Source of the DNA: a virus
Taxonomy: Duplodnaviria; Heunggongvirae; Uroviricota; Caudoviricetes
IMG/VR virus record: IMGVR_UViG_2734482778_000005
Location: 1 to 10,057 of that record
Length of the DNA: 10,057 bases
Direction: 5' to 3' (one strand)
Shown here: one piece after another, positions 1-10,057 of the stretch
Layout: each line of letters opens with the position of its first letter
Position numbering within the stretch: position 1 is the stretch's first letter
Notes under the pieces: generated by a model
The model's input: only the letters and a program-made list of their open reading frames with translations
Told to the model about the DNA's origin: nothing
The model's database searches: none
Position numbers and translations under genes: made by a program

Positions 1-105
1 CCAGAAAATGTTGTCCGGCGTGCGCCACTGATCGCCCACTTCCTTCAGTTCATGGGCTGGTTTGTTCCGCAGTTCCACCAGCGCCTGGCAATATTTATTA
101 CTCAT
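1..105 (-). CDS. N-terminal 35 codons of a gene that continues beyond the window start; possible phage Dam-type DNA N6-adenine methyltransferase
   Basis: Minus-strand ATG at 105-103 overlaps the TAA stop of the upstream gene (TAATG). Reads MSNKYCQALVELRNKPAHELKEVGDQWRTPDNIFW with no stop to the window edge. Codon usage is host-like (CTG, GCG, CCG). The D-x-W-R-T-P motif near the N-terminus resembles phage Dam-family methyltransferases; this is recalled, not searched. Confidence 0.4.
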   Translation of the reverse strand, partial: MSNKYCQALVELRNKPAHELKEVGDQWRTPDNIFW

Positions 106-599
106 TAAGCCCCCACGTAATTCCCTGACAGATACCACTCATCACCCGATACAGCGCGCTTGCTGCTTTTCCGTAAACACTGCTCACGACGCGCCAGAAA
201 ATTGTTTCGTTCTGGCTGGGAGTGGCTTTCACGGAATGCCGCCATCCACACCGTTGCAGCACGACGGTATAAGCCCCTGGACTCCAGTTCTTCCGCCTGG
301 CGGGTCAGGCACAAAATCACCCGGGGATCGTTAGTGCCGACATAGAAATTGCGCACAGGTCTGGTTTCACGAACTGGTTGTGGTTCCGGCTCCTGCGCTC
401 TCTCAGTCAGGCGTGGGAAATGTCTGCGTGTATCTCCTTCACAACGGTGAGCCACACGCCCACTCTGACGTAACTTGCTTGCTGACTGCAGAACGCGCTG
501 CCGTGAGTAACCTGCAAAAGCATCCGCAATGTCTCCGGAAGTACACCCCGGATGGGCTTCAATGAATTTCTGAACGTCATTTAACAGACTCATGATCAC
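105..599 (-). CDS. Hypothetical prophage protein, 164 aa, with a C-terminal PerC-like motif (LESRGLYRRAATVW); possibly YfdN-like
   Basis: Complete ORF on the minus strand. Its ATG at 599-597 overlaps the stop of the O-like gene (ATGA). The C-terminal half carries a motif recalled from the PerC/Pch regulator family. The length equals what I recall for K-12 YfdN, but that is not verified. Confidence 0.65.
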   Translation of the reverse strand: MIMSLLNDVQKFIEAHPGCTSGDIADAFAGYSRQRVLQSASKLRQSGRVAHRCEGDTRRHFPRLTERAQEPEPQPVRETRPVRNFYVGTNDPRVILCLTRQAEELESRGLYRRAATVWMAAFRESHSQPERNNFLARREQCLRKSSKRAVSGDEWYLSGNYVGA

Positions 600-1588
600 C
601 CCCTGAATCCTGCCGGGATCTGGCTGTAGTCCACGTTGTCGTAACTGGCTTTGAAGTACGGGTCTTCACGTTTTTCTGTGTGCGTGCTGACGGACGGCGA
701 TAAGCGCAGGGAAAGCTCATCCCATTTTTCCCGCAACTTCGACGGGCTGAGCACGTTACGGCACCAGAACGGATCGCGGCTGACGCGGCTGTACATCTCG
801 CAGATTTGTTTGTGAGTACGACCATCCTGCACACACATCAGGCGAATTTCGTTTGCCCATGCTGTCCAGTTCGGTTCTTTGGGACGAACCACCTCGCCGT
901 CACATTCGGCGGCCTGCTCGTACAGGGCGATGATTTTTTTCCAGAGCCACTGTGCGCAGGTCAAATCATCCTGCGTTCCCCACTGGCGCTTTTTAGGGCT
1001 GAATACAACCGCATCAGGATGGCGAGTTAAAAACTCCTGTTCAGCCGTTTGCGTGTCCGGTTGCGAAGCGTCCGGACGAGAAGAGGTTTTATTCTCTGTA
1101 GTAATCTCTGTTGTATTCTCTGTAAGATCATTGGGCCATTTTGACCCGATGACAGCGTGTCGTTTTGAACCAATGGATCGTGTCATTTTGCGCCCATCCA
1201 TCAGGTCACTTTGACCCGATGGAGAAGTGCATTTTGACCCGATGGATTCGTTCACTTTGACCTCTTCTAAAAGCTCACTTTCATAGTTGATCGTGTAGAA
1301 GTTGGTCATGTCACGCTTCGATTTATTGAGTTGCTCGCGACGCAAAACCCCAAGTGATTTCAGGCTTGCAAATGTGCGTTTCAGAGTGGACTCTGACCAG
1401 AACGGAAACTGCTCCAGCCACTGTTCTGTCGTGTTATAAACCCAGCGAATTCCGCCATGCTCAGTGCCTGAATTCGTTTCATTCAGCCAGTAATGAAGCT
1501 GCTGCAACACAATTGCCTCATTCAGACCAATACGGCATGCAAGATCACGATTTATCACAATGGGCTGGGATGTCATTAACAGGCTCAT
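596..1588 (-). CDS. Lambdoid replication initiator (O-like), 330 aa, with the replication origin embedded in its coding sequence
   Basis: ATG at 1588 is preceded by GAGGT with a 5-nt spacer. The direct repeats at 1139-1264 fall in the middle of the ORF and encode the repeated SIGSK peptide, as iterons do in lambda O. Downstream gene is coupled by an ATGA overlap. Confidence 0.85.
   Translation of the reverse strand: MSLLMTSQPIVINRDLACRIGLNEAIVLQQLHYWLNETNSGTEHGGIRWVYNTTEQWLEQFPFWSESTLKRTFASLKSLGVLRREQLNKSKRDMTNFYTINYESELLEEVKVNESIGSKCTSPSGQSDLMDGRKMTRSIGSKRHAVIGSKWPNDLTENTTEITTENKTSSRPDASQPDTQTAEQEFLTRHPDAVVFSPKKRQWGTQDDLTCAQWLWKKIIALYEQAAECDGEVVRPKEPNWTAWANEIRLMCVQDGRTHKQICEMYSRVSRDPFWCRNVLSPSKLREKWDELSLRLSPSVSTHTEKREDPYFKASYDNVDYSQIPAGFRG
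1081..1264. repeat. Putative phage origin: six direct iterons at about 23-bp spacing (core TTTTGACCCGATGGA, starting near 1139, 1163, 1186, 1209, 1232, 1255) next to an AT-rich tract (1081-1138) carrying short TTCTCTGT repeats
   Basis: Direct reading of the sequence: four near-identical and two degenerate copies of the TTTTGACC core, phased at 23-24 bp, abutting an AT-rich stretch. This is the classic iteron plus AT-rich lambdoid ori-within-O layout. Confidence 0.65.
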
Positions 1589-1757
1589 GACCGACCTCTA
1601 TTTCCCTGAATTTACGACGAAACTGTTCGAGCGGACTGAAGCATTCATGTTCATAGCCTTCACGGAGGTAGATAACCCGTTGTGTTTCCGGCTCCCAACG
1701 AATGACTCTGACGGGCACTCCGTAGTGATCTTTGAACCAGCGGTTAACTTGTCGCAA
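1545..1757 (-). CDS. Alternative small ORF (70 aa, TTG start); mutually exclusive with most of 1598-1936
   Basis: TTG start is preceded by AAGGAGA with a 7-nt spacer. The product ([40 protein letters not shown]...) has a globular-looking composition. It overlaps the O-like start by 44 nt and overlaps the 112-aa ORF in another frame. Confidence 0.3.
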
Positions 1758-1936
1758 AGGACTGTCTCCTTCTGCCGGTTGAAATCACCCACAGCCCACT
1801 CTGCAAAGCTGTGGGTTACAATTTCCCTGTCACCTGGTACATTCACTGCATAGCAATACTCCACCTTCGCTTTTCCACCCGGTACAGGAAGCGCAATCAG
1901 TTGCGAGCGACGGTAGTGTGTTGTTAAACTGTTCAT
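1598..1936 (-). CDS. Hypothetical protein, 112 aa, between the CII-like and O-like genes
   Basis: ATG at 1936 overlaps the stop of the upstream CII-like gene (ATGA). GGAGA lies 9 nt upstream. The TAG stop at 1600-1598 sits 9 nt before the O-like ATG, inside its ribosome-binding site, which is typical operon spacing. The C-terminal half is S/T/N-rich and less protein-like. Confidence 0.45.
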
Positions 1937-2517
1937 GCGTTAGTTTCTCCACAACCAGAAGCAATCGACGCCACGACGCCCGGAGCTGCACACTCGCGGG
2001 CGTTACTCTTTTCCGGCGCACAAAAAACACGAAATAACAGTGTTAAATGCTCCTGCCACTTCGCCATTACTTGGTAGCTGTTCTCTTCGATTTGCTCACG
2101 CTCAGCCTGGTCAATAACTCCATCAGCAGTTGCCTTGCGTAAGTACTGGGAATGCTTGCCAATCCATTCTATTGACTCCATCAGCCGCTGATTAATGTCA
2201 CCATTGTCAATGTCATCAATGACCACCAGCGGCACAAACACCCCATTACTACGACGGGCTATTGCATCTGTTACATGCCTGGTACCACTGGCATCCTGTA
2301 AAACCATGGCCCACTCAAGTGGAAAAATTTGATCCCCACCGCTACGCAGTCTGTTATGCAATTGATCTTTTGCTGGGGTGATATCATCAGATTTATACAA
2401 ACCAAGAATTTCTGCTGCTTCCTCATAGCCATGAGGTAAATCAGCAATCGTTCTTCGTATTGCTGCCACCAGCCATGCTGGTTGTTTATCAACTTTCCAT
2501 TCAGGTTCTTTACCCAC
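1933..2517 (-). CDS. Phage CII-like regulatory protein (CP76/YdaT-type), 194 aa, GTG start
   Basis: GTG at 2517-2515 is preceded by GAGGA with a 7-nt spacer. It sits immediately downstream of the Cro-like gene (27-nt gap), in the cII position. The central region ([10 protein letters not shown]...[25 protein letters not shown]) resembles CII/CP76-type regulators from memory. Confidence 0.7.
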
Positions 2518-2544
2518 GGTTAATTCCTCATTTCTGTGGTGTTT

Positions 2545-2742
2545 TTATGCCGCAGCACTGTTAGTCTTTTGATATAAAGACACGTCAACTTTCAGTTTCC
2601 CGTTAGTAATTTTTTCTAACTGGTACGCTCGGCCTTCAGGAATAATCTCAGGCCACTCTGAAACAGACGGATGCTTAATACCTAGGGCTTCGGCGGTTTT
2701 ACAAACTCCGCCGAAATAATTAATCACGTCGGATTTCCGCAT
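2545..2742 (-). CDS. Cro-like small HTH regulator (YdaS/Cro family), 65 aa
   Basis: ATG at 2742 is preceded by GGGAGA with a 5-nt spacer. It is the first gene leftward of the operator cluster and divergent from the cI-like gene. The HTH-like segment is GGVCKTAEALGIKHPSVSEW. Confidence 0.8.
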   Translation of the reverse strand: MRKSDVINYFGGVCKTAEALGIKHPSVSEWPEIIPEGRAYQLEKITNGKLKVDVSLYQKTNSAAA

Positions 2743-2773
2743 TTCTGTCTCCCGTTAAATTACGTTAAGCAGA

Positions 2774-2840
2774 AATGTAGGATATCCAACATGCCAATGT
2801 CAAGAATCCTACATGGGCATGTGGTAGGATTGCCTACATG
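2774..2840. promoter_or_regulatory. OR-like operator region: three 18-bp imperfect palindromes (2775-2792, 2797-2814, 2822-2839) overlapping a leftward PR-like promoter (-35 TTGACA at 2803-2798, -10 TACATT at 2779-2774, minus strand) and the cI start
   Basis: Direct reading. The sites are ATGTAGGATATCCAACAT, ATGTCAAGAATCCTACAT and TGGTAGGATTGCCTACAT, sharing the half-site ATGT(A/T)GGAT. The promoter is TTGACA, 18-nt spacer, TACATT, aimed at the cro-like gene. Confidence 0.6.
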
Positions 2841-3491
2841 ATGAACATGAGTGATCGTATTCGCCAAAGGCGAAAAGAACTGAACCTGACACAACAAGCA
2901 CTGGCTGATTTGACTGGTGTGAACCGTGTCACGGTTACTGGATGGGAAAAGGACGACTACCAACCAAATGGAGCCAACCTTCAAGCCCTAGCCAACGCAC
3001 TTAAATGCGATCCTCTGTGGCTTGTTAGCGGAAAAGGCTCGCCTGAACCAAAGATAAATCTAAAACCTGAAATATTCGCAGTTAAAAAAGTCCCCCTCAT
3101 CTCGTGGGTTCAGGCGGGTTCATGGACAATGACGGAGCCTGGTGTCAGGAAAGAAGATGCTGAAGAGTGGGTTTATACTACCGCCCTTGTATCAGAAATG
3201 GCATTTGCACTACGGGTCCGTGGTGATTCAATGACCAATCCCCTCGGCTCACCATCGATACCAGAAGGTTCTATCGTTATCGTAGAGCCAGATATTATTG
3301 ATACAGAGTGTATTAACGGAAAAATCGTTGTTGCCCATATCAATGGTGGGCAAGAAGCGACACTCAAAAAATTTGTTGAGGACTGGCCGAACAGGTATCT
3401 CGTCCCACTAAATCCTAACTATAAAACTATTGAATGCGGTGAGAACTGCAGAATAGTTGGTCTTGTCAAACAAGTAATAATGGATTTTTGA
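2838..3491 (+). CDS. cI: cI-like prophage repressor: N-terminal XRE-type HTH plus C-terminal S24 (LexA-like) autopeptidase domain, 217 aa
   Basis: HTH segment LTQQALADLTGVNRVTVTGWE. A candidate Ala-Gly cleavage site (VQAGSW). The catalytic Ser sits in the GDSM context and a Lys in ATLKKF. The start overlaps the third operator; alternative ATGs lie at 2841 and 2847. Confidence 0.9.
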   Translation: MMNMSDRIRQRRKELNLTQQALADLTGVNRVTVTGWEKDDYQPNGANLQALANALKCDPLWLVSGKGSPEPKINLKPEIFAVKKVPLISWVQAGSWTMTEPGVRKEDAEEWVYTTALVSEMAFALRVRGDSMTNPLGSPSIPEGSIVIVEPDIIDTECINGKIVVAHINGGQEATLKKFVEDWPNRYLVPLNPNYKTIECGENCRIVGLVKQVIMDF

Positions 3492-3511
3492 CACATCTTC
3501 CTCACTATCGC

Positions 3512-3537
3512 AAAACCGGGGTATCCCCGGTTTTTTT
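3512..3537 (+). terminator. Rho-independent terminator after cI (stem AAAACCGGGG / CCCCGGTTTT, 3-nt loop, T7 tail)
   Basis: Perfect 10-bp GC-rich inverted repeat followed by TTTTTTT, 21 nt after the cI stop. The A-tract upstream makes it potentially bidirectional. Confidence 0.7.
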
Positions 3538-3553
3538 ATGAGCCTATCTTTTT

Positions 3554-3607
3554 ATGTAGGATAACCAACATAAACTCTTGACACTCACATGTTGGATATC
3601 CTACATT
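3554..3607 (+). promoter_or_regulatory. OL/PL-like region: two 18-bp operators (3554-3571, 3589-3606) bracketing a rightward promoter (-35 TTGACA at 3578-3583, -10 TACATT at 3602-3607)
   Basis: The operators ATGTAGGATAACCAACAT and ATGTTGGATATCCTACAT share the OR half-site. The promoter has the same TTGACA, 18-nt spacer, TACATT geometry as PR. Confidence 0.6.
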
Positions 3608-3765
3608 TGTTTTTAGAGTTGTGGTGAATGCGCAGGCTGATGCGCGAAAGACATTGCAGCTATTGCGGAAAAGAGCTGTTCGGCGGGGCAATTAAACGCC
3701 CGTGAGAGTCTGAAATAACCGCAAGCCGGAGATCAGCACCGGTCACCACAACAGCCACTGCTTTG

Positions 3766-3813
3766 GCGGTACCAGTTTGTACACTTGCTTCCGGCTGGTA
3801 CCGCTCTTTTTAC
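3766..3813 (+). other. Strong hairpin in the PL leader (10-bp perfect stem GCGGTACCAG / CTGGTACCGC, 19-nt loop, then TCTTTTT); possible attenuator or terminator
   Basis: Perfect inverted repeat read directly, followed by a T-rich run, about 135 nt upstream of the first early-left gene. Function is not established. Confidence 0.3.
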
Positions 3814-3948
3814 AAAACAGAGAAGAGCATCACCGGACGACGGGCTCATAACCCAATCCATCCGGGCGGCTGCCACCGCAGGTGTTCTTCTCTGTTTTGT
3901 GGAGAAACTAACCGACCTTGCAGGGTCGATATGATGAGGAGCAGCAAA

Positions 3949-4311
3949 ATGGCTAGCGAACGCAGTACTGATGTGCAGGCATTTATTGGGGAGCTGGACG
4001 GCGGCGTATTTGAAACCAAAATCGGCGCAGTTCTCAGTGAAGTCGCTTCCGGTGTGATGAACACGAAAACCAAAGGTAAGGTCTCGCTCAACCTGGAAAT
4101 CGAACCGTTTGATGAGAATCGTGTGAAAATCAAACACAAACTCTCGTATGTTCGCCCGACTAACCGCGGGAAAATTTCCGAAGAAGACACCACCGAAACG
4201 CCGATGTATGTCAATCGCGGTGGTCGCCTGACTATTCTGCAGGAAGACCAGGGACAATTACTGACTCTTGCTGGTGAACCTGACGGAAAACTCCGCGCAG
4301 CAGGTCATTAA
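3949..4311 (+). CDS. yfdP: YfdP-like prophage protein, 120 aa
   Basis: ATG at 3949 is preceded by GAGGAG with a 7-nt spacer. The ORF-track start at 3763 is a TTG with an implausible N-terminal extension. Length and position directly upstream of the YfdQ/YfdR-like genes match the CPS-53 yfdP-yfdQ-yfdR order as I recall it. Confidence 0.65.
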   Translation: MASERSTDVQAFIGELDGGVFETKIGAVLSEVASGVMNTKTKGKVSLNLEIEPFDENRVKIKHKLSYVRPTNRGKISEEDTTETPMYVNRGGRLTILQEDQGQLLTLAGEPDGKLRAAGH

Positions 4312-4376
4312 TATCGTTCTTAATTAACTGATTATTTATCTCATCACTGAATATCTTTATATAGTGAGGACTTATT

Positions 4377-5201
4377 ATGTCTCAGAACTTAGACGCAACC
4401 GCAATTAATCAAATCCATGCCCTTATTTCTGCTCAGGGTGTTAATGAAATTATCAGTAAGATTGGTGCCGATGCTGTGGCATTGCCTGAGAATTTCCGCA
4501 TTCATGATCTGGAAAAATTTAATTTAAATCGCTTCCGTTTCCGTGGTGCGCTTTCCACTGCCAGCATCGATGACTTTACCCGTTATTCTAAAGATCTTGC
4601 AGATGAAGGCACCCGCTGCTTTATCGATGCTGATAATATGCGTGCCGTCAGTGTGCTTAACCTGGGTACTATTGATGAACCAGGTCACGCAGATAACACC
4701 GCCACTCTCAAACTGAAAAAGACAGCACCGTTCTCTGCTCTGTTGTCTGTTAATGGCGAGCGTAACTCCCAGAAATCACTGGCAGAATGGATTGAAGACT
4801 GGGCCGACTACCTTGTGGGCTTTGATACTAATGGTGACACCATTCAGGCAACAAAAGCGGCTGCGGCGGTCCGTAAAATCACGATTGAAGCAAACCAGAC
4901 CGCTGATTTTGAGGATAATGACTTCAGCGGCAAACGCTCCCTGATGGAGTCTGTCGAAGCGAAGACCAAAGACATTATGCCAGTGGCATTTGAATTTAAA
5001 TGCGTTCCGTTTGAAGGCCTTAAAGAACGTCCGTTTAAATTACGCCTCAGCATTATCACTGGCGATCGTCCTGTACTGGTTCTGCGCATTATTCAGCTGG
5101 AAGCGGTGCAGGAAGAAATGGCTAACGAATTTCGTGATCTGCTTGTTGAGAAATTCAAAGACAGCAAAGTAGAAACCTTTATTGGTACTTTCACCGCCTG
5201 A
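4377..5201 (+). CDS. yfdQ: YfdQ-like protein (DUF2303 family), 274 aa
   Basis: ATG is preceded by GAGGA with a 6-nt spacer. It is a long clean ORF with host-like codon usage. The sequence and length match my recollection of CPS-53 YfdQ. Confidence 0.8.
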
Positions 5202-5213
5202 TTTCATTACTGC

Positions 5214-5235
5214 AAATGCCCCTGCGGGGGCATTT
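5214..5235 (+). terminator. Terminator-like hairpin after yfdQ (AAATGCCCC, loop TGCG, GGGGCATTT) with a weak U-tail
   Basis: Perfect 9-bp inverted repeat 13 nt after the yfdQ stop. Only three T residues follow, so it is probably a partial terminator or an RNA-stability element. Confidence 0.3.
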
Positions 5236-5329
5236 ATGGAAACGTAATTAACTCAATAATCGCCGGATGGTGAGGGCTTCCTTTTACCCGAATTCAGCGC
5301 GGTGCAGCGCATATAACGTGGAGAACAAA

Positions 5330-5866
5330 ATGTCATTTATTAAAACTTTTTCCGGGAAGCATTTTTATTATGACAGGATAAATAAAGACAACATCGATAT
5401 TAACGATATCGCGGTTTCCCTTTCAAATATCTGTCGCTTTGCCGGTCATCTTTCACACTTCTACAGCGTCGCCCAACATGCGGTGCTTTGCAGCCAGCTG
5501 GTGCCGCAGGAATTTGCTTTTGAAGCGTTAATGCATGATGCAACAGAAGCGTATTGCCAGGACATCCCCGCGCCACTGAAACGCCTTCTTCCTGACTATA
5601 AACGGATGGAAGAAAAAATAGACGCCGTAATCCGTGAGAAATACGGGTTACCCCCGGTTATGAGTACGCCCGTGAAATATGCCGATCTCATCATGCTGGC
5701 AACCGAACGCCGTGATCTCGGGCTTGATGATGGCTCTTTCTGGCCTGTACTGGAAGGCATCCCGGCAACAGAGATGTTCAACGTGATTCCACTGGCACCG
5801 GGCCATGCCTACGGGATGTTTATGGAACGCTTCAACGAGTTATCGGAATTACGCAAATGTGCATAA
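5330..5866 (+). CDS. yfdR: YfdR-like HD-domain phosphohydrolase (5'-deoxynucleotidase-type), 178 aa
   Basis: ATG at 5330 is preceded by GGAG. HD motif (ALMHDATEA) and upstream His residues are present. Length and sequence match my recollection of K-12 YfdR. The ORF-track start at 5267 is an upstream in-frame extension. Confidence 0.8.
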   Translation: MSFIKTFSGKHFYYDRINKDNIDINDIAVSLSNICRFAGHLSHFYSVAQHAVLCSQLVPQEFAFEALMHDATEAYCQDIPAPLKRLLPDYKRMEEKIDAVIREKYGLPPVMSTPVKYADLIMLATERRDLGLDDGSFWPVLEGIPATEMFNVIPLAPGHAYGMFMERFNELSELRKCA

Positions 5867-6735
5867 CTCATGTAGTTAGTTTTTCTGGCGGGAGAACATC
5901 TGCATATCTTGTTCACCTGATGGAAGAACAAAGAAAGGCTGGCAATAACGTCTGCTACATCTTTATGGATACCGGTTGCGAACATCCGCTGACATACCGC
6001 TTTATTCGGGAGGTTGTGAAGTTCTGGGGCATACCGCTAACTGTGTTGCAGGTCGATATAAATCCAGAGCTTGGGCAGCCAAATGGTTATACGGAATGGG
6101 AACCAAAGGATATTCAGACACGAATGCCGGTGCTTAAACCGTTTATGGACATGGTAAAAAAATATGGCACGCCATACATCGGCGGCGCATTCTGCACTGA
6201 CAGATTAAAACTCACCCCCTTCACAAAATACTGCGATGACCATTTCGGACGAGGGAATTACATCACATGGCTGGGTATTCGTGCAGACGAACCTCGTAGG
6301 CTGAAACCGAAATCGGGCGTCCGGTATCTTGCCGAGCTATCTGATTTTGATAAGTCGGATGTTATCCGGTGGTGGCATAAACAACCTTTTGATTTGCAAA
6401 TCCCGGAGCACCTCGGGAACTGTGTTTTCTGCATCAAAAAGTCCACGCAAAAGCTGGGGCTTGCATGTAAAGACGAACCTGGTCTGATGCGAGTTTTTAA
6501 TGAGCTGGTTACAGGTAAACACGTCCGGGATGGTCACCGAAAGACAAATAAAGACGTTATGTACCGTGGTCATCTGAGCCTTGACGGGATTGCCAGAATG
6601 TATGCCGACAGCGACTACAGAAATTTGTATCAGGCGATGGTGCAAGCCAGGCGATTCGATACCGGCTCGTGTTCAGGGTCATGTGAAATCTGGGGTGATC
6701 AATTGGAGTTGAAATTCGAAGAGGTGGTGGCATGA
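5857..6735 (+). CDS. PAPS-reductase-like PP-loop ATP-pyrophosphatase family protein, 292 aa
   Basis: N-terminal PP-loop SFSGGRTS (SGGxxS type). The start overlaps the yfdR stop by 10 nt and the stop overlaps the next start (ATGA). It is a long ORF with several Cys residues near the C-terminus. Confidence 0.8.
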   Translation: MCITHVVSFSGGRTSAYLVHLMEEQRKAGNNVCYIFMDTGCEHPLTYRFIREVVKFWGIPLTVLQVDINPELGQPNGYTEWEPKDIQTRMPVLKPFMDMVKKYGTPYIGGAFCTDRLKLTPFTKYCDDHFGRGNYITWLGIRADEPRRLKPKSGVRYLAELSDFDKSDVIRWWHKQPFDLQIPEHLGNCVFCIKKSTQKLGLACKDEPGLMRVFNELVTGKHVRDGHRKTNKDVMYRGHLSLDGIARMYADSDYRNLYQAMVQARRFDTGSCSGSCEIWGDQLELKFEEVVA

Positions 6736-7205
6736 CAACCAAAATTAACTATCAGGCACTGCGTGAGGCGGCAGAAGCAATAAAAATAGTAGCCACACCA
6801 CAAAAATTGCTGGCATTTCGTATGAAAGTCACACCGCAGGTTGTGCTGGCGCTGCTGGATGAGCTGGAAGCAGCAGAGAAGCGAAACGCTGAATTACAAA
6901 GCGAGAATGCATACATCCGCAACCGGTACAAAGAACTGGACCTATTAATCGGGAAAAACATTCTGGTCATGCAGGCTGCCATTATCGAATGGCAGGCAAC
7001 TGGCGACGCTAAGAGCGGACTGGCATGGATTTATAACACACTGTTTGGCCCTGGCGAATTACCGGACGAATCTGAGAAAGATGCTCAGGCCTACTTTAAT
7101 CGCAAATATGCACCGATTGACGAAAAGCTTATGGCGCTTCACAAGTGGTTTTGGGAACAAAGTGAAGCCGAGCGCGCCGCTGGCATTCGCATCAAAGGAG
7201 AGTGA
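6732..7205 (+). CDS. Ea22-like (ead/Ea22 family) phage early protein, 157 aa
   Basis: ATGA overlap with the upstream gene; GAGGTG ribosome-binding site. The N-terminal YQALREAAEA and coiled-coil-like central region resemble Ea22-family prophage proteins from memory. Confidence 0.6.
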   Translation: MTTKINYQALREAAEAIKIVATPQKLLAFRMKVTPQVVLALLDELEAAEKRNAELQSENAYIRNRYKELDLLIGKNILVMQAAIIEWQATGDAKSGLAWIYNTLFGPGELPDESEKDAQAYFNRKYAPIDEKLMALHKWFWEQSEAERAAGIRIKGE

Positions 7206-7206
7206 T

Positions 7207-7470
7207 ATGGCAACTTTGACAAAAAAGGAACAGGCATGGTTGAGCGAATTACAGAACGTTCTTGATCGCTGCCCGTCACCGAAAAAAATTGGTTTTTACA
7301 CCATTGGCGATAAAAACATTTACCTGTATGACCTACGCCGCATGGATGAAATCATGGAGGCTCTTGATAATCGTTCGTCAATGGATTGGTGTGTTGCTGT
7401 CCATGATATGAATGCCGGATTTGAAGAAAAGATTTTGTTCCCCTCGTCAGTTGAAAGCACAGCGGGTTAA
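7207..7470 (+). CDS. Hypothetical phage protein, 87 aa
   Basis: ATG at 7207 is preceded by AGGAG with an 8-nt spacer and starts 1 nt after the upstream TGA. The ORF-track start at 7045 is an in-frame extension overlapping the upstream gene. Confidence 0.6.
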   Translation: MATLTKKEQAWLSELQNVLDRCPSPKKIGFYTIGDKNIYLYDLRRMDEIMEALDNRSSMDWCVAVHDMNAGFEEKILFPSSVESTAG

Positions 7471-7480
7471 GGACTAACAC

Positions 7481-7945
7481 ATGACAACGTTCACCGACAA
7501 AGAACTGATTAAAGAAATCAAAGAGCGCATAGGCAGCCTGCCAGAATTAATCGAAGGCATGGAAGTTTCCATTGATGTAAGCACTTGTGATGCTGATTTA
7601 GGTAATCGCTATTTCGGCACCGTCACCGAGGCGTTAGAACTTGATACAGCCAAGAATGGTTACATCCTCCTGGTTCAGGACGCAGAGCCAAACTTCGATG
7701 TAAATGGCAACTCTCCGGGAACTCCGGATAGTTGGATAAGCTGTAGTGATCGAATGCCTGAAAAGGGCCAGAACGTGCTTATTTCGGTGAATTTCGATAG
7801 CTCTCTGGTTGAACCGCTAATATGCTCCGCACGCTATACCGGAAGCACCTTTCGGCGCGGAGATGCAACGATTAAGCCGGGTAATGGTATTGAGCAAGCA
7901 ACTCACTGGATGCCGCTACCGGAACCGCCGCAGGAGGTGAAGTGA
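7481..7945 (+). CDS. DUF551-family phage protein, 154 aa
   Basis: AAGGA with a 7-nt spacer. The C-terminal segment (WISCSDRMPEKGQNVLI ... HWMPLPEPP) matches the DUF551 pattern as I recall it. Confidence 0.7.
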   Translation: MTTFTDKELIKEIKERIGSLPELIEGMEVSIDVSTCDADLGNRYFGTVTEALELDTAKNGYILLVQDAEPNFDVNGNSPGTPDSWISCSDRMPEKGQNVLISVNFDSSLVEPLICSARYTGSTFRRGDATIKPGNGIEQATHWMPLPEPPQEVK

Positions 7946-8517
7946 TGAACAACTTAATGATCGACCTTGAGACGATGGGGAAAAATAAGGATGCACCGAT
8001 CGTTTCCATTGGCGCGGTGTTCTTCACTCCAGAAACCGGAGACATCGGACAAGAATTCTATACGGTTGTTAGCCTGGAAAGTGCTATGGGGCAAGGAGCT
8101 ACACCTGACGGCGATACCATCCTGTGGTGGTTGAAACAAAGCCCTGAAGCACGAGCTGCAATCTGTATTGATGATACTTTGTCGATCAGCGATGCTCTCT
8201 CAGAACTAAATCATTTCATTAACCGGCACGCAGCCAATACGAAATATTTAAAAGTCTGGGGTAACGGGGCCACCTTCGACAACGTAATTTTACGTGGAGC
8301 TTATGAGCGAGCAGGACAAATCTGCCCGTGGGCATACTGGAATGACCACGATGTACGCACGATCGTTACGCTTGGGCGTTCCATCGGATTCGACCCCAAA
8401 ATGGACATCCCTTTCGATGGCGAACGGCACAACGCCCTAGCCGATGCCCGTCATCAGGCAAAATATGTTTCCGCTATCTGGCAGAAATTAATTCCTGCCA
8501 CCAGCACAGAATTATGA
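7945..8517 (+). CDS. DEDD-type (DnaQ-like) 3'-5' exonuclease, 190 aa
   Basis: Exo I motif IDLETMG, Exo II region WGNGATFDNVIL and Exo III HNALADARH are in the expected order. ATG at 7945 has AGGAGG with a 7-nt spacer; the GTG at 7942 in the ORF track is too close to that site. It overlaps the upstream stop (TGATG). Confidence 0.8.
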   Translation: MNNLMIDLETMGKNKDAPIVSIGAVFFTPETGDIGQEFYTVVSLESAMGQGATPDGDTILWWLKQSPEARAAICIDDTLSISDALSELNHFINRHAANTKYLKVWGNGATFDNVILRGAYERAGQICPWAYWNDHDVRTIVTLGRSIGFDPKMDIPFDGERHNALADARHQAKYVSAIWQKLIPATSTEL

Positions 8518-8553
8518 TTTTCCCGGGTGCAGCCGGTTTTGATGGAGAAAATT

Positions 8554-8826
8554 ATGAATACCTTGTTTTTACTGATGGCTGAATTCAATACCCCTAACAT
8601 TGAACTCTCAGCAGTTAGCCAAAAGTACTTTGGCATGAGTCCAGCCACGGCAGAAGCAAAAGCAAACGCTTGTAAGTTGCCCGTTCCAACATATCGCATC
8701 GGCACATCACAAAAAGCAAAACGTTGCATCAATATTCAGGATCTTGCGGAATACATAGACAAAAGGCGAGAAGAAGGGCGTGCTGAGTGGGAAAGGGTCA
8801 GAACCCATAAACAAAGGCTCATTTAA
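8554..8826 (+). CDS. PrtN-family / excisionase-like small DNA-binding protein, 90 aa
   Basis: ATG at 8554 is preceded by GGAGA. The product (MNTLFLLMAEFNTPNIELSAVSQKYFGMSPATAEAKANACKLPVPTYR...) resembles PrtN/Xis-like proteins from memory. It is the last gene of the rightward operon. Confidence 0.6.
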   Translation: MNTLFLLMAEFNTPNIELSAVSQKYFGMSPATAEAKANACKLPVPTYRIGTSQKAKRCINIQDLAEYIDKRREEGRAEWERVRTHKQRLI

Positions 8827-8834
8827 ATAGAATA

Positions 8835-8866
8835 TGAATAAACCCATCCAAAGATGGGTTTATTCA
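8835..8866. terminator. Perfect 14-bp inverted repeat (TGAATAAACCCATC, loop CAAA, GATGGGTTTATTCA) between convergent genes; candidate bidirectional terminator
   Basis: Read directly. The right arm contains the stop codon of the minus-strand gene. A T-rich run follows on the minus-strand transcript, so it probably works better for the leftward cassette. Confidence 0.5.
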
Positions 8867-9321
8867 TAATGTTGAAGAGCAGCGAGTATCAGTTTTTTAT
8901 GCCGTTTAACCATAGTTTTAGATATCTCAACTGCACATCGAACTTGTCTCATACAATGATCTGTAATGCGACCTTTTAGCACGTCACCATATTGGATGGC
9001 TATTTTCTCTTTAATAATTTCAAGATCGAAAGCAGCATGAGCCTCAATGCAATTAACAAATGAGTCCCATTTAAGAAAATCATGGTCCTCTCTATTAATT
9101 TCGACCTGACAAGCCATAAGATCATTGTTTCTCTTAATAAATTCATTTATATCTGAATTTATTAGAAGAACTAAAAGAGGTTCACAGCAAACAACCACCA
9201 TATATTTTACTTTAGGTGGGGTCGTAAAATCACAATGAAGATACAATACATCACCGGGTGATATACCTCTTTCACGACTAAAATTAGCCTTAAAATCAGG
9301 AGGGAAACAATCACCCAGCAT
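8860..9321 (-). CDS. Hypothetical protein, 153 aa, no family recognised; candidate toxin or effector partner of the upstream Panacea-domain gene
   Basis: ATG at 9321-9319 lies 5 nt after the TGA of the Panacea-domain gene. The ORF track extends to a TTG at 9330, which would give an ATGA-type overlap. AT-rich codon usage differs from the rest of the window. No known motif identified by eye. Confidence 0.65.
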   Translation of the reverse strand: MLGDCFPPDFKANFSRERGISPGDVLYLHCDFTTPPKVKYMVVVCCEPLLVLLINSDINEFIKRNNDLMACQVEINREDHDFLKWDSFVNCIEAHAAFDLEIIKEKIAIQYGDVLKGRITDHCMRQVRCAVEISKTMVKRHKKLILAALQHYE

Positions 9322-9326
9322 AAGTA

Positions 9327-9908
9327 TCAATATCCGTTCTTCAGATAATCCAGTATTAATTTGCTATTTTTTAGCTGTGCAACTATCGATTCCAAAGACA
9401 TCTCACCATTGTGATCTGCCTGTTCCCATGCCGCGTCATGGCTCATGGTTCTGATAGCTTCAAAGGACATGTTTCCAAGCATCGCGATAGACTTATCAAT
9501 ACACTCTAAATCTGAGTCACTAAAAAAGTCTTCATCAGCTTCACGGCTCGGCACAATCGTCATACCTGATACAGAAAATGCTTTTCGCACAGAATCGACA
9601 TCACAACCATTAGGAATGTAACGTCCATCTCCACGAGCAATTTTTATAATATCGTATGTGTTGCTTGCTACAGGCCCATCCTTCATAGCGTTATAGTGAT
9701 CGCCCGTTATGAGGCGTCCAAAACTTTCAAGGTGAAACCTGTCAGCATAATAAAGAATTTTTCCGACATGATAGATATCTGGGATCGGTGCTTTAGAGGC
9801 GACGTACAGAATGGCCTCTAAAGCCTTTTCTGAATCAAACCTTACATTTAGCATCAATACACCCTTCATCCAAACAACATCGTCAAGCTCTGGCAAATGC
9901 AACCGCAT
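9327..9908 (-). CDS. Panacea (DUF4065) domain protein, SocA/GepA-like, 193 aa (possibly 175 aa from an internal ATG at 9854)
   Basis: N-terminal region (EAILYVASKAP-IPDIYHVGKILYYADRFHLESFGRLITGDHYNAMKDGPV) matches the Panacea/COG3600 signature (KLxKLLYYA ... GPV). The C-terminal part (LSDSDLECIDKSIAMLGNMSFEAIRTMSHDAAWEQA) matches the second conserved block. No ribosome-binding site precedes the ATG at 9908; AAGGG precedes the ATG at 9854. Confidence 0.7.
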   Translation of the reverse strand: MRLHLPELDDVVWMKGVLMLNVRFDSEKALEAILYVASKAPIPDIYHVGKILYYADRFHLESFGRLITGDHYNAMKDGPVASNTYDIIKIARGDGRYIPNGCDVDSVRKAFSVSGMTIVPSREADEDFFSDSDLECIDKSIAMLGNMSFEAIRTMSHDAAWEQADHNGEMSLESIVAQLKNSKLILDYLKNGY

Positions 9909-9920
9909 CCGCCTTCTACA

Positions 9921-9950
9921 ATCTTAAAGTCTTCACCTACGCTAGGTCAA
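9921..9950 (-). promoter_or_regulatory. Candidate sigma70 promoter for the leftward two-gene cassette (-35 TTGACC at 9950-9945, 18-nt spacer, -10 TAAGAT at 9926-9921)
   Basis: Hexamers read on the minus strand upstream of the Panacea-domain gene. The -10 matches the consensus at 4 of 6 positions. Weak call. Confidence 0.25.
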
Positions 9951-10057
9951 TTGAAGTGATGAGCAAATGATGCTTTCTAAGAAGAACAGGTTCCCAATAG
10001 GCTCCCACAAAGTGTATAACTACTTGTTTTTCAAAAACGGTACATCCTATCGAGCAT

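Follow-up and report, generated by a model that had tools for sequence, protein, structure and literature searches.

The DNA analysed here, referred to throughout as the window, is a 10,057-nucleotide stretch (positions 1 to 10,057) of the IMG/VR virus record IMGVR_UViG_2734482778_000005, which belongs to the Caudoviricetes. It carries an O-like initiator gene, inside which lie six phased repeats (iterons), three tandem 12-base-pair (bp) repeats (12-mers) and a GC-rich inverted repeat. The segment that holds these features, 1055-1262, lies in the linker-coding part of the initiator gene and very probably serves a lambdoid E. coli prophage as its vegetative replication origin. An original prediction, made from the bare sequence, had placed an origin within the initiator gene and given it an initiator-origin specificity of its own. 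Both proposals are now backed, by computation alone, with the correction that the initiator gene and the origin are read on the minus strand. The features, with protein positions in amino acids (aa), are as follows.

596..1588, minus strand: O-like initiator gene, 330 aa; ATG at 1588 preceded by GAGG
1265..1588, minus strand: N-terminal winged-helix origin-binding domain (predicted), aa 1 to about 108; S67 in helix aa 66-79
1250..1262, minus strand: iteron 1, GGTCAAAGTGAAC; most distant from the 12-mers
1227..1239, minus strand: iteron 2, GGTCAAAATGCAC
1204..1216, minus strand: iteron 3, GGTCAAAGTGACC; perfect 5-bp arms GGTCA/TGACC
1181..1193, minus strand: iteron 4, GCGCAAAATGACA; degenerate
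1158..1170, minus strand: iteron 5, GTTCAAAACGACA
1134..1146, minus strand: iteron 6, GGTCAAAATGGCC; nearest the 12-mers
1088..1123, minus strand: three tandem 12-mers, ACAGAGAATACA, ACAGAGATTACT, ACAGAGAATAAA; peptide TENTTEITTENK; candidate unwinding/loading element
1055..1077, minus strand: GC-rich inverted repeat; arms GTCCGG (1055-1060) and CCGGAC (1072-1077); 11-nucleotide spacer
689..1021, minus strand: C-terminal helical domain, presumed recruitment module; lambda O C-terminal homology

Viewed on the plus strand, the array consists of six TTTTGACC-type units starting at 1139, 1163, 1186, 1209, 1232 and 1255. The successive intervals are 24, 23, 23, 23 and 23 bp, in agreement with the predicted six repeats phased at 23-24 bp inside an O-like open reading frame (ORF). 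Autocorrelation, which had been suggested as a check, gives the same answer. Period-23 self-similarity reaches 74/115 matches at position 1146, against a mean of 49.1 (standard deviation 1.7) and a maximum of 55 in 200 first-order Markov resamples of the window, and the next-best period-23 score anywhere in the window is 54. The predicted repeat core is in need of revision: the repeats are real, but TTTTGACC is one half of the conserved unit, which on the gene strand is a 13-bp dyad with the consensus GGTCAAAATGACC. Each copy lies 1-3 positions from this consensus, with the fourth and fifth the most degenerate, and an inverted partial copy at 1196-1208 overlaps at iteron 4. A CCATCG part was considered as the binding core and rejected, as it is the 13-bp dyad that is conserved and covaries; the CCATCG-like sequence is a spacer, conserved in part. 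In HannyBb-type relatives the site matching iteron 1 is degenerate (TGGCAAATTGAGC). The array and the 12-mers fall in the segment coding for aa 110-181, a linker predicted to be disordered. When translated, the iteron units yield differing peptides in three frames (SIGSKC, PSGQSD, RKMT and others). The 23-bp period is not divisible by 3, so successive copies of the DNA repeat fall into all three reading frames, and a repeat read in this way can be maintained only by selection on the DNA.

The covariation between one residue of the initiator and one base of the iterons argues that the encoded protein reads these repeats. This is the strongest evidence at hand for such recognition, and it is indirect. 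The comparison set was made up of genes encoding the same N-domain, 12 from phages and 80 from genomes (one locus per species), and 74 of its loci had scorable iterons. Residue 67 (motif W-S-E-S67-T-L-K-R) predicts the base beside the CA...TG core in 74/74 of these. Serine is found with a flanking T (44/44 loci), aspartate with G (18/18), lysine or arginine with A (5/5) and asparagine with C (2/2), while loci with alanine or glutamate have T (5/5). At least nine flanking-base changes are inferred on a neighbour-joining tree. Residue and base both differ within close pairs: L125 (K, A) with L134 (D, G), whose N-domains are 90% identical, and the Staphylococcus locus L156 (S, T) with phage 96 (R, A), at 82%. 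In a scan of all alignment columns, made with no prior choice, residue 67 ranks first; its mutual information, 1.29 bits, is as large as the entropy of the flanking base itself. The second-ranked column, residue 111, is itself encoded by the first iteron. The AlphaFold model (pLDDT 70-88 for aa 10-105) shows a winged helix-turn-helix (HTH) whose third helix, aa 66-79, is the predicted recognition helix and has S67 at its N-terminus.

The order N-domain, iterons, 12-mers is found in nearly all loci of the comparison set, with 2-7 core matches per locus at 22-24 bp spacing and 2-5 12-mer units. It extends over Gamma-, Beta-, Epsilon- and Alphaproteobacteria and Firmicutes. Across these loci the conserved iteron core has the form xyzCA-AAW-TGz'y'x'. 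Its variants include GGTCAAAATGACC in E. coli and others, GGGCAAATTGCCC in Pantoea and Pseudomonas, GTGCAAAATGCAC in Campylobacterales, Comamonas and Acinetobacter, and GATCAAAATGATC in Limosilactobacillus. The dyad arms covary with the palindrome preserved, as GGTCA/TGACC, GGGCA/TGCCC, GTGCA/TGCAC or GATCA/TGATC. The GC-rich inverted repeat past the 12-mers behaves similarly. Relatives (L100-L149) have at the same place the arms GGTTGC/GCAACC, GGTTCC/GGAACC, GGTTTC/GAAACC or GGCTCA/TGAGCC; these changes are compensatory, with pairing preserved while the encoded peptide varies. An IMG/VR protein scan returned close relatives alone (99% and 75% groups) and added little diversity.

The number of units is variable. 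The 12-mer number differs by whole units (2 to 5) in L097, L106 and L109 compared with the window, which is consistent with expansion or contraction by slippage or recombination, and the iteron number is likewise variable among these otherwise close relatives. Some Bacillaceae depart further from the common arrangement. N-domain homologues occur at L159, L160 and L175 (Bacillus and Neobacillus genomes), where the gene and its flanks, to 1.5 kb each way, yielded neither iterons nor 12-mers; any origin they have lies elsewhere, or these prophages have decayed. At L169 (Neobacillus kokaensis, 1220-1330) the gene itself is without repeats, and an iteron-like TCATCAAAATGATC with 12-mer-like CCAGAGATTAC, ACATAGATTTC and TTCAGAGATTTAC lies ~200 bp upstream of it, in a region where no plus-strand ORF of at least 50 aa was found.

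Beside the array, the original prediction had noted an AT-rich tract with short repeats. The tract does adjoin the iterons, with a GC content of 0.30-0.375 against about 0.5 in the surroundings, but it is a specific 12-mer with the consensus (A)CAGAGAnTACw and not merely AT-rich. Three tandem 12-bp units, TATTCTCTGTAG, TAATCTCTGTTG and TATTCTCTGTAA, occupy 1090-1125, and the whole tract reads CTTACAGAGAATACAACAGAGATTACTACAGAGAATAAAA on the gene strand. The start of iteron 6 is 23 bp from the start of the first 12-mer. With a free energy (dG) of -45.8 against a gene mean of -57.2 (standard deviation 3.7), the 40-mer starting at 1088 is the least stable in the gene.

Codon use in 69 loci separates the DNA from the peptide it encodes. 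Threonine at repeat position 1 is ACA in 198/198 cases, against 21% of threonine codons elsewhere in the same genes, and the glutamate of the 12-mer is GAG in 211/219, against 46% elsewhere. A change of the first residue to S, P or A leaves xCA in place (TCA, CCA or GCA), and the third residue may be N, I, T or S, always via AnT. By this test the conserved object is the DNA (or RNA) sequence (A)CAGAGAnTACw and not the peptide. The tract is 96% and 91% identical to that of relatives in which the N-domain coding part is 74-76% identical, with 50-53% third-position identity in that part. The distance from the start of the last iteron core to the first 12-mer is also constrained, being 20-23 bp in 50/64 loci. 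It is the nucleotide sequence of the 12-mer that is maintained, from Proteobacteria to Firmicutes and in initiator subfamilies that have diverged from one another.

A scan of IMG/VR for two adjacent 12-mer units gave at least 120 loci, of which at least 71 encode the window-type N-domain upstream. Among the matches listed, 49 are without this N-domain at E 1e-3, about 44 of them having enough upstream sequence. Those of them that were read carry the same 12-mers in frame, following direct repeats of other kinds, within ORFs whose N-domains have diverged. Ten N-domains, the window's included, were compared with remote families. Eight of the nine diverged domains match PHROGs 9773, 6493, 1347 and 270, as does the window protein, whereas the L280-type N-domain gave no match to them. 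These shared matches indicate that the matching 12-mer carriers form one initiator superfamily, and the idea that the other carriers are unrelated initiator families was rejected on this count (9/10 N-domains). Reading of the 12-mers by the iteron-recognition helix is also unlikely, since identical 12-mers accompany different iterons. Among L177-L296, tandem CAGAGAnTAC in frame as T-E-x-T can be seen for example at L184 (2857), L203 (12438), L255 (3682) and L198 (minus strand).

The initiator itself is a composite protein. Over its full length (aa 1-330) it matches PHROG 391, 'replication initiation O-like' (E 8e-102, profile 1-298/298), and its MSLL N-terminus is kept in homologues. Searches of Pfam and NCBIfam assigned it no family. 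Even up to E 10 there was no Pfam match to Phage_rep_O (PF04492), which lambda O matched at 5.7e-36 in the same run, and neither RepA_N (PF06970) nor Rep_3 (PF01051) was matched in Pfam. Sequence and profile searches of PDB sequences with the initiator gave chance matches alone, and the profile search no RepA_N chain. No sequence similarity was found to TP901-1 Rep, an initiator whose in-gene origin has been defined by experiment. The predicted fold of the N-domain is nonetheless that of a RepA_N / DnaD-NTD-like winged helix. The C-domain, with AlphaFold helices at 206-296, is 40% identical to the lambda O C-terminus over 93 aa (BLASTP, E 1e-25).

The two halves of the gene have been exchanged between phages. 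The closest phage is mEp460_4F5, at 98% identity, and SfII, SfIV and many other phages share the C-terminal half alone (window 596-1098), at 97-98% nucleotide identity. The SfII/SfIV N-domain has a different HTH (HTH_36, PF13730), and no 12-mers were found in these initiators, despite the same C-domain and closely related enterobacterial hosts. The breakpoint of homology with SfII-type genes is at 1098, inside the last 12-mer at the end of the tract. Thus the N-domain, iterons and 12-mers travel together, as expected of a matched pair of domain and repeats. Given the SfII/SfIV case and the single superfamily, the 12-mers track the N-domain superfamily and not the host, the C-domain or the iteron sequence. 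Other C-domains behind the same N-domain are Phg_2220_C (Klebsiella and, by precomputed Pfam, other relatives) and DnaB_2 (Staphylococcus phage 96). The N-domain family comprises 2300 clusters without a Pfam model, and the N-domain-plus-origin segment is present in 1925/5426 complete E. coli genomes, almost always chromosomal and labelled 'hypothetical protein'.

In SfII and SfIV (L003/L004), in-gene repeats with a 15-bp period, GACCCGTCAAAATCT / GACGCATCAAAATCT, lie at about nucleotides 300-480 of the gene together with an A-rich tract. At L110, L111, L116 and L145 (Proteus, Scandinavium), a lambda-like palindrome, ATTCGTC..GACGAAT, and a lambda-like 'SSENSDES' linker directly adjoin the window-type N-domain, iterons and 12-mers, which makes another mosaic joint at the origin edge. 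The chimeric plasmid initiator of pPR9 is reported to have an HTH_36-type N-domain too (PMC5703833).

The origin of lambda and the Stx phages provides the closest layout. It too occupies the central, linker-encoding stretch of the initiator gene (PMC7466680), and has 4-6 dyad-symmetric iterons centred on an A-tract at 20-24 bp spacing. The lambda iterons (TCCCTCAAAACGAGGGA) follow the same grammar as those of the window. A low-stability tract past the iterons in the gene direction and then an inverted repeat are common to both, as are the homologous C-terminal domain and the position of the gene after cro and cII. At the place corresponding to the inverted repeat, lambda has an imperfect palindrome, ATTCGTCAGAGAATTCTGGCGAAT, which holds one 12-mer-like unit, TCAGAGAATTC. 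In lambdoid phages the N-domain and iterons are likewise swapped as a unit (PMC7466680, PMC5043065). However, the lambda N-domain is Phage_rep_O, without counterpart in the window protein, the AT tract of lambda is purine-rich where the window has a specific 12-mer repeat conserved across phyla, and the P gene that follows O in lambda has no equivalent behind the window initiator. The iteron sequence also differs from that of lambda, as had been predicted. The accompanying claim of a longer period fails, given that the annotated lambda iterons are spaced by 20, 24 and 23 bp.

The predicted DNA-binding domain and the iteron grammar more closely resemble those of plasmid RepA_N replicons than lambda O. 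In RepA_N replicons the iterons have a semi-palindromic form, with inverted halves converging on a poly-A tract (PMC7145576). The pSK41 origin has four Rep boxes placed centrally in rep, where they code for a dispensable linker, and in its Rep protein the N-terminal domain (NTD) binds DNA and the C-terminal domain (CTD) contacts the host primase (PMC5703833). Read directly, the pSK41 rep gene (L297 13600-13745) has boxes GAAATGTCAAAAGGACACGTCTA with a 23-bp period, followed by 15-bp direct repeats GATACTGATTTTATT. Its core, TGTCAAAAGGACA, is close to the window's GGTCAAAATGACC, and the period is the same. RepA_N replicons (pSK41, pTZ2162 and PLE RepA of Vibrio cholerae) thus share with the window the arms converging on poly-A and the central linker-coding origin. 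They also have direct repeats after the boxes and an NTD that can be swapped with its origin as a unit, as in pPR9 (PMC5703833, PMC7145576). The differences are that the window protein has no sequence-level membership of the family (PF06970, PDB profile search), that its C-domain is lambda-O-like whereas the pSK41 CTD binds DnaG, that pSK41 has 15-bp repeats where the window family has CAGAGAnTAC 12-mers, and that RepA_N replicons are plasmids whereas the window element belongs to a lambdoid prophage. In terms of predicted fold, iterons and homology, the window element is a natural chimera of a RepA_N-like N-domain with its iterons and a lambda-O-like C-domain. The 12-mers can also be compared to the 13-mers of oriC and RK2, which are short tandem repeats beside an initiator-binding array whose exact sequence matters, not just their AT content (PMC5043065). 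The window repeat is different in being 12 bp long, in having another consensus, in lying inside a coding region and in its unwinding role being putative.

The gene neighbourhood is that of a lambdoid immunity/replication block. Upstream of the initiator on the same strand are a P22-Cro-type cro (2545-2742), a cII/YmfL-like gene (1933-2517) and a 112-aa ORF, with a divergent cI-like repressor at 2838-3491. The ORF that comes next, a 164-aa PerC-like regulator (105-599, minus strand), is translationally coupled to the initiator, its ATG overlapping the initiator's stop codon (ATGA, 596-599). No P-, DnaC- or DnaB-like gene follows the initiator, the check for DnaC and DnaB being limited to the mEp460_4F5 annotation, in which there is no helicase-loader or helicase gene as far as gene Q (locus L001). 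A lambda-P homologue follows the initiator in just 4 of about 175 related loci (L103, L108, L115 and L129).

The origin reading rests on the in-gene linker position, as in lambda O and pSK41 Rep (PMC7466680, PMC5703833), together with the O-like identity of the initiator, the gene context, the mosaic unit and the covariation of residue 67 with the flanking base. Computation shows the repeats and the selection on them as DNA, the residue-base covariation, the fold and the modular exchange, while initiator binding, DNA bending, 12-mer unwinding and helicase recruitment are the inferred steps of the proposed mechanism. The six 13-bp dyads (of the form GGTCA-AAA-TGACC, with 23-bp phasing) would be occupied by dimers of the N-terminal winged-helix domain, in which residue 67 would read the base pair beside the CA...TG core. 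Together these sites, centred on A-tracts and probably bent, would give rise to an O-some-like nucleoprotein complex, which would destabilise the adjoining tract of three CAGAGAnTAC units, one iteron period past the last iteron. The lambda-O-like C-domain would then recruit the host helicase, probably DnaB-DnaC directly or through another partner, a route that is proposed since no P-like loader gene follows.

Several points weigh against this account. Two of the six iteron copies are degenerate and may bind weakly; in Stx phages, four of six iterons are well protected (PMC7466680). At about 68% AT the 12-mer tract is only moderately AT-rich, and lower stability is found elsewhere in the window. 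The AlphaFold model is poor overall (mean pLDDT 57), with the N-domain alone reasonably confident. The covariation counts (74/74) are not phylogenetically independent, though at least nine switches are inferred. A few Bacillaceae homologues are without in-gene repeats. The helicase recruitment step is left unexplained by the absence of a loader or helicase gene after the initiator here and in mEp460_4F5. Finally, in the literature searched, the motif strings yielded unrelated primer matches alone and keywords led to no description of the family.

Within the origin, the role of the 12-mers is the least settled part. That they are a sequence-specific opening or loading element, used by a conserved feature of the initiator, seems about evenly balanced. 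[quoted passage not shown] Slightly more tentative is the broader proposal that the CAGAGAnTAC array is a previously undescribed sequence-specific origin element. It would be common to a very large phage and prophage initiator superfamily with RepA_N-like winged-helix N-domains, from Proteobacteria to Firmicutes, with different iterons and C-terminal recruitment domains, and would be read by a conserved initiator feature (e.g. by binding one unwound strand) as an opening or helicase-loading site.

Alternatively, the 12-mers may not unwind at all and may instead be a recombination joint between the N and C modules, an RNA signal in the early transcript, or a universal host-factor (e.g. primase) site. 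This is doubtful but deserves some weight. The SfII/window breakpoint at 1098 lies inside the last 12-mer, the tract is just about 68% AT, and the same 12-mers accompany diverged initiator subfamilies with different iterons. CTG, the start triplet of E. coli DnaG, can be read on the complementary strand of every 12-mer unit. However, a recombination joint would not stay under purifying selection in Firmicutes and Proteobacteria alike, and the spacing to the last iteron is fixed. The absence of 12-mers from SfII and SfIV, which have the same C-domain and closely related hosts, and the membership of the tested carriers (8/9 diverged N-domains) in one remote initiator superfamily also speak against these roles.

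It is improbable that the repeats are initiator-binding sites but not the start site, serving as autoregulatory operators or as titration, incompatibility or exclusion sites with the true origin elsewhere, on the model of plasmid handcuffing iterons or 'phage-encoded resistance' origins. The covariation, it is true, shows recognition and not initiation. The Bacillaceae without in-gene repeats, together with the upstream iteron-like and 12-mer-like sequence of L169, also indicate that the in-gene position is not obligatory. Yet the lambda and pSK41 origins, which have been defined by experiment, have this same layout of iterons, a low-stability tract and an inverted repeat in the linker of the initiator gene (PMC7466680, PMC5703833), and no second iteron cluster was found within the 10-kb window. 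The fixed distance of 20-23 bp between the 12-mers and the last iteron suits an opening element better than an operator.

That the repeats are kept for the protein, as a low-complexity linker (SIGSK..., TENTTEITTE) born by slippage and without a DNA role, was rejected as highly improbable: the region does code for a disordered linker and the 12-mers are always in the same frame (T-E-x-T), but the 23-bp units are read in three frames as different peptides, the 12-mer codons are fixed (ACA 198/198, xCA upon residue change, AnT), the inverted-repeat arms change in a compensatory manner while the peptide changes, a 12-mer-like array stands in the non-coding DNA of L169, and covariation ties the iteron arms to a residue of the DNA-binding helix.

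Origins that lie within an initiator gene are already known. In the literature searched, no description was found of an N-domain absent from Pfam, a RepA_N-like fold with a lambda-O-like tail and no loader gene, nor of the one-residue recognition rule or the cross-phyla 12-mer array. Recognition of the origin would allow replication modules to be annotated in many prophages, including those of Klebsiella, Proteus, Pantoea, Pseudomonas, Staphylococcus and Bacillus relatives. The residue 67 rule would offer a simple recognition rule for initiator-origin specificity, with a bearing on phage incompatibility, exclusion and engineered orthogonal replicons. The widely conserved 12-bp element could reveal how DNA opening and helicase loading are achieved by initiators without an AAA+ domain in phages that encode no loader, and the natural chimera links the lambda paradigm with the RepA_N plasmid paradigm. 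If true, the 12-mer element and the position-67 rule (S/A-T, D-G, K/R-A, N-C) would make origins and their specificity predictable from sequence in thousands of prophages.

Existing annotation of the locus differs from that given here. In the GenBank entry of mEp460_4F5 the initiator starts 12 nucleotides downstream of the MSLL start (window 1577-1588; L001 5981-5993) and is named 'Primosomal protein I'. RefSeq genomes label the initiator 'hypothetical protein' and the upstream 112-aa ORF 'DUF4222'. Elsewhere in the window, two adjacent ORFs of 156 and 193 aa without assigned PHROG function (8860-9908, minus strand) occupy its most AT-rich and least stable part (around 9135-9500), and may be a moron or cargo module.

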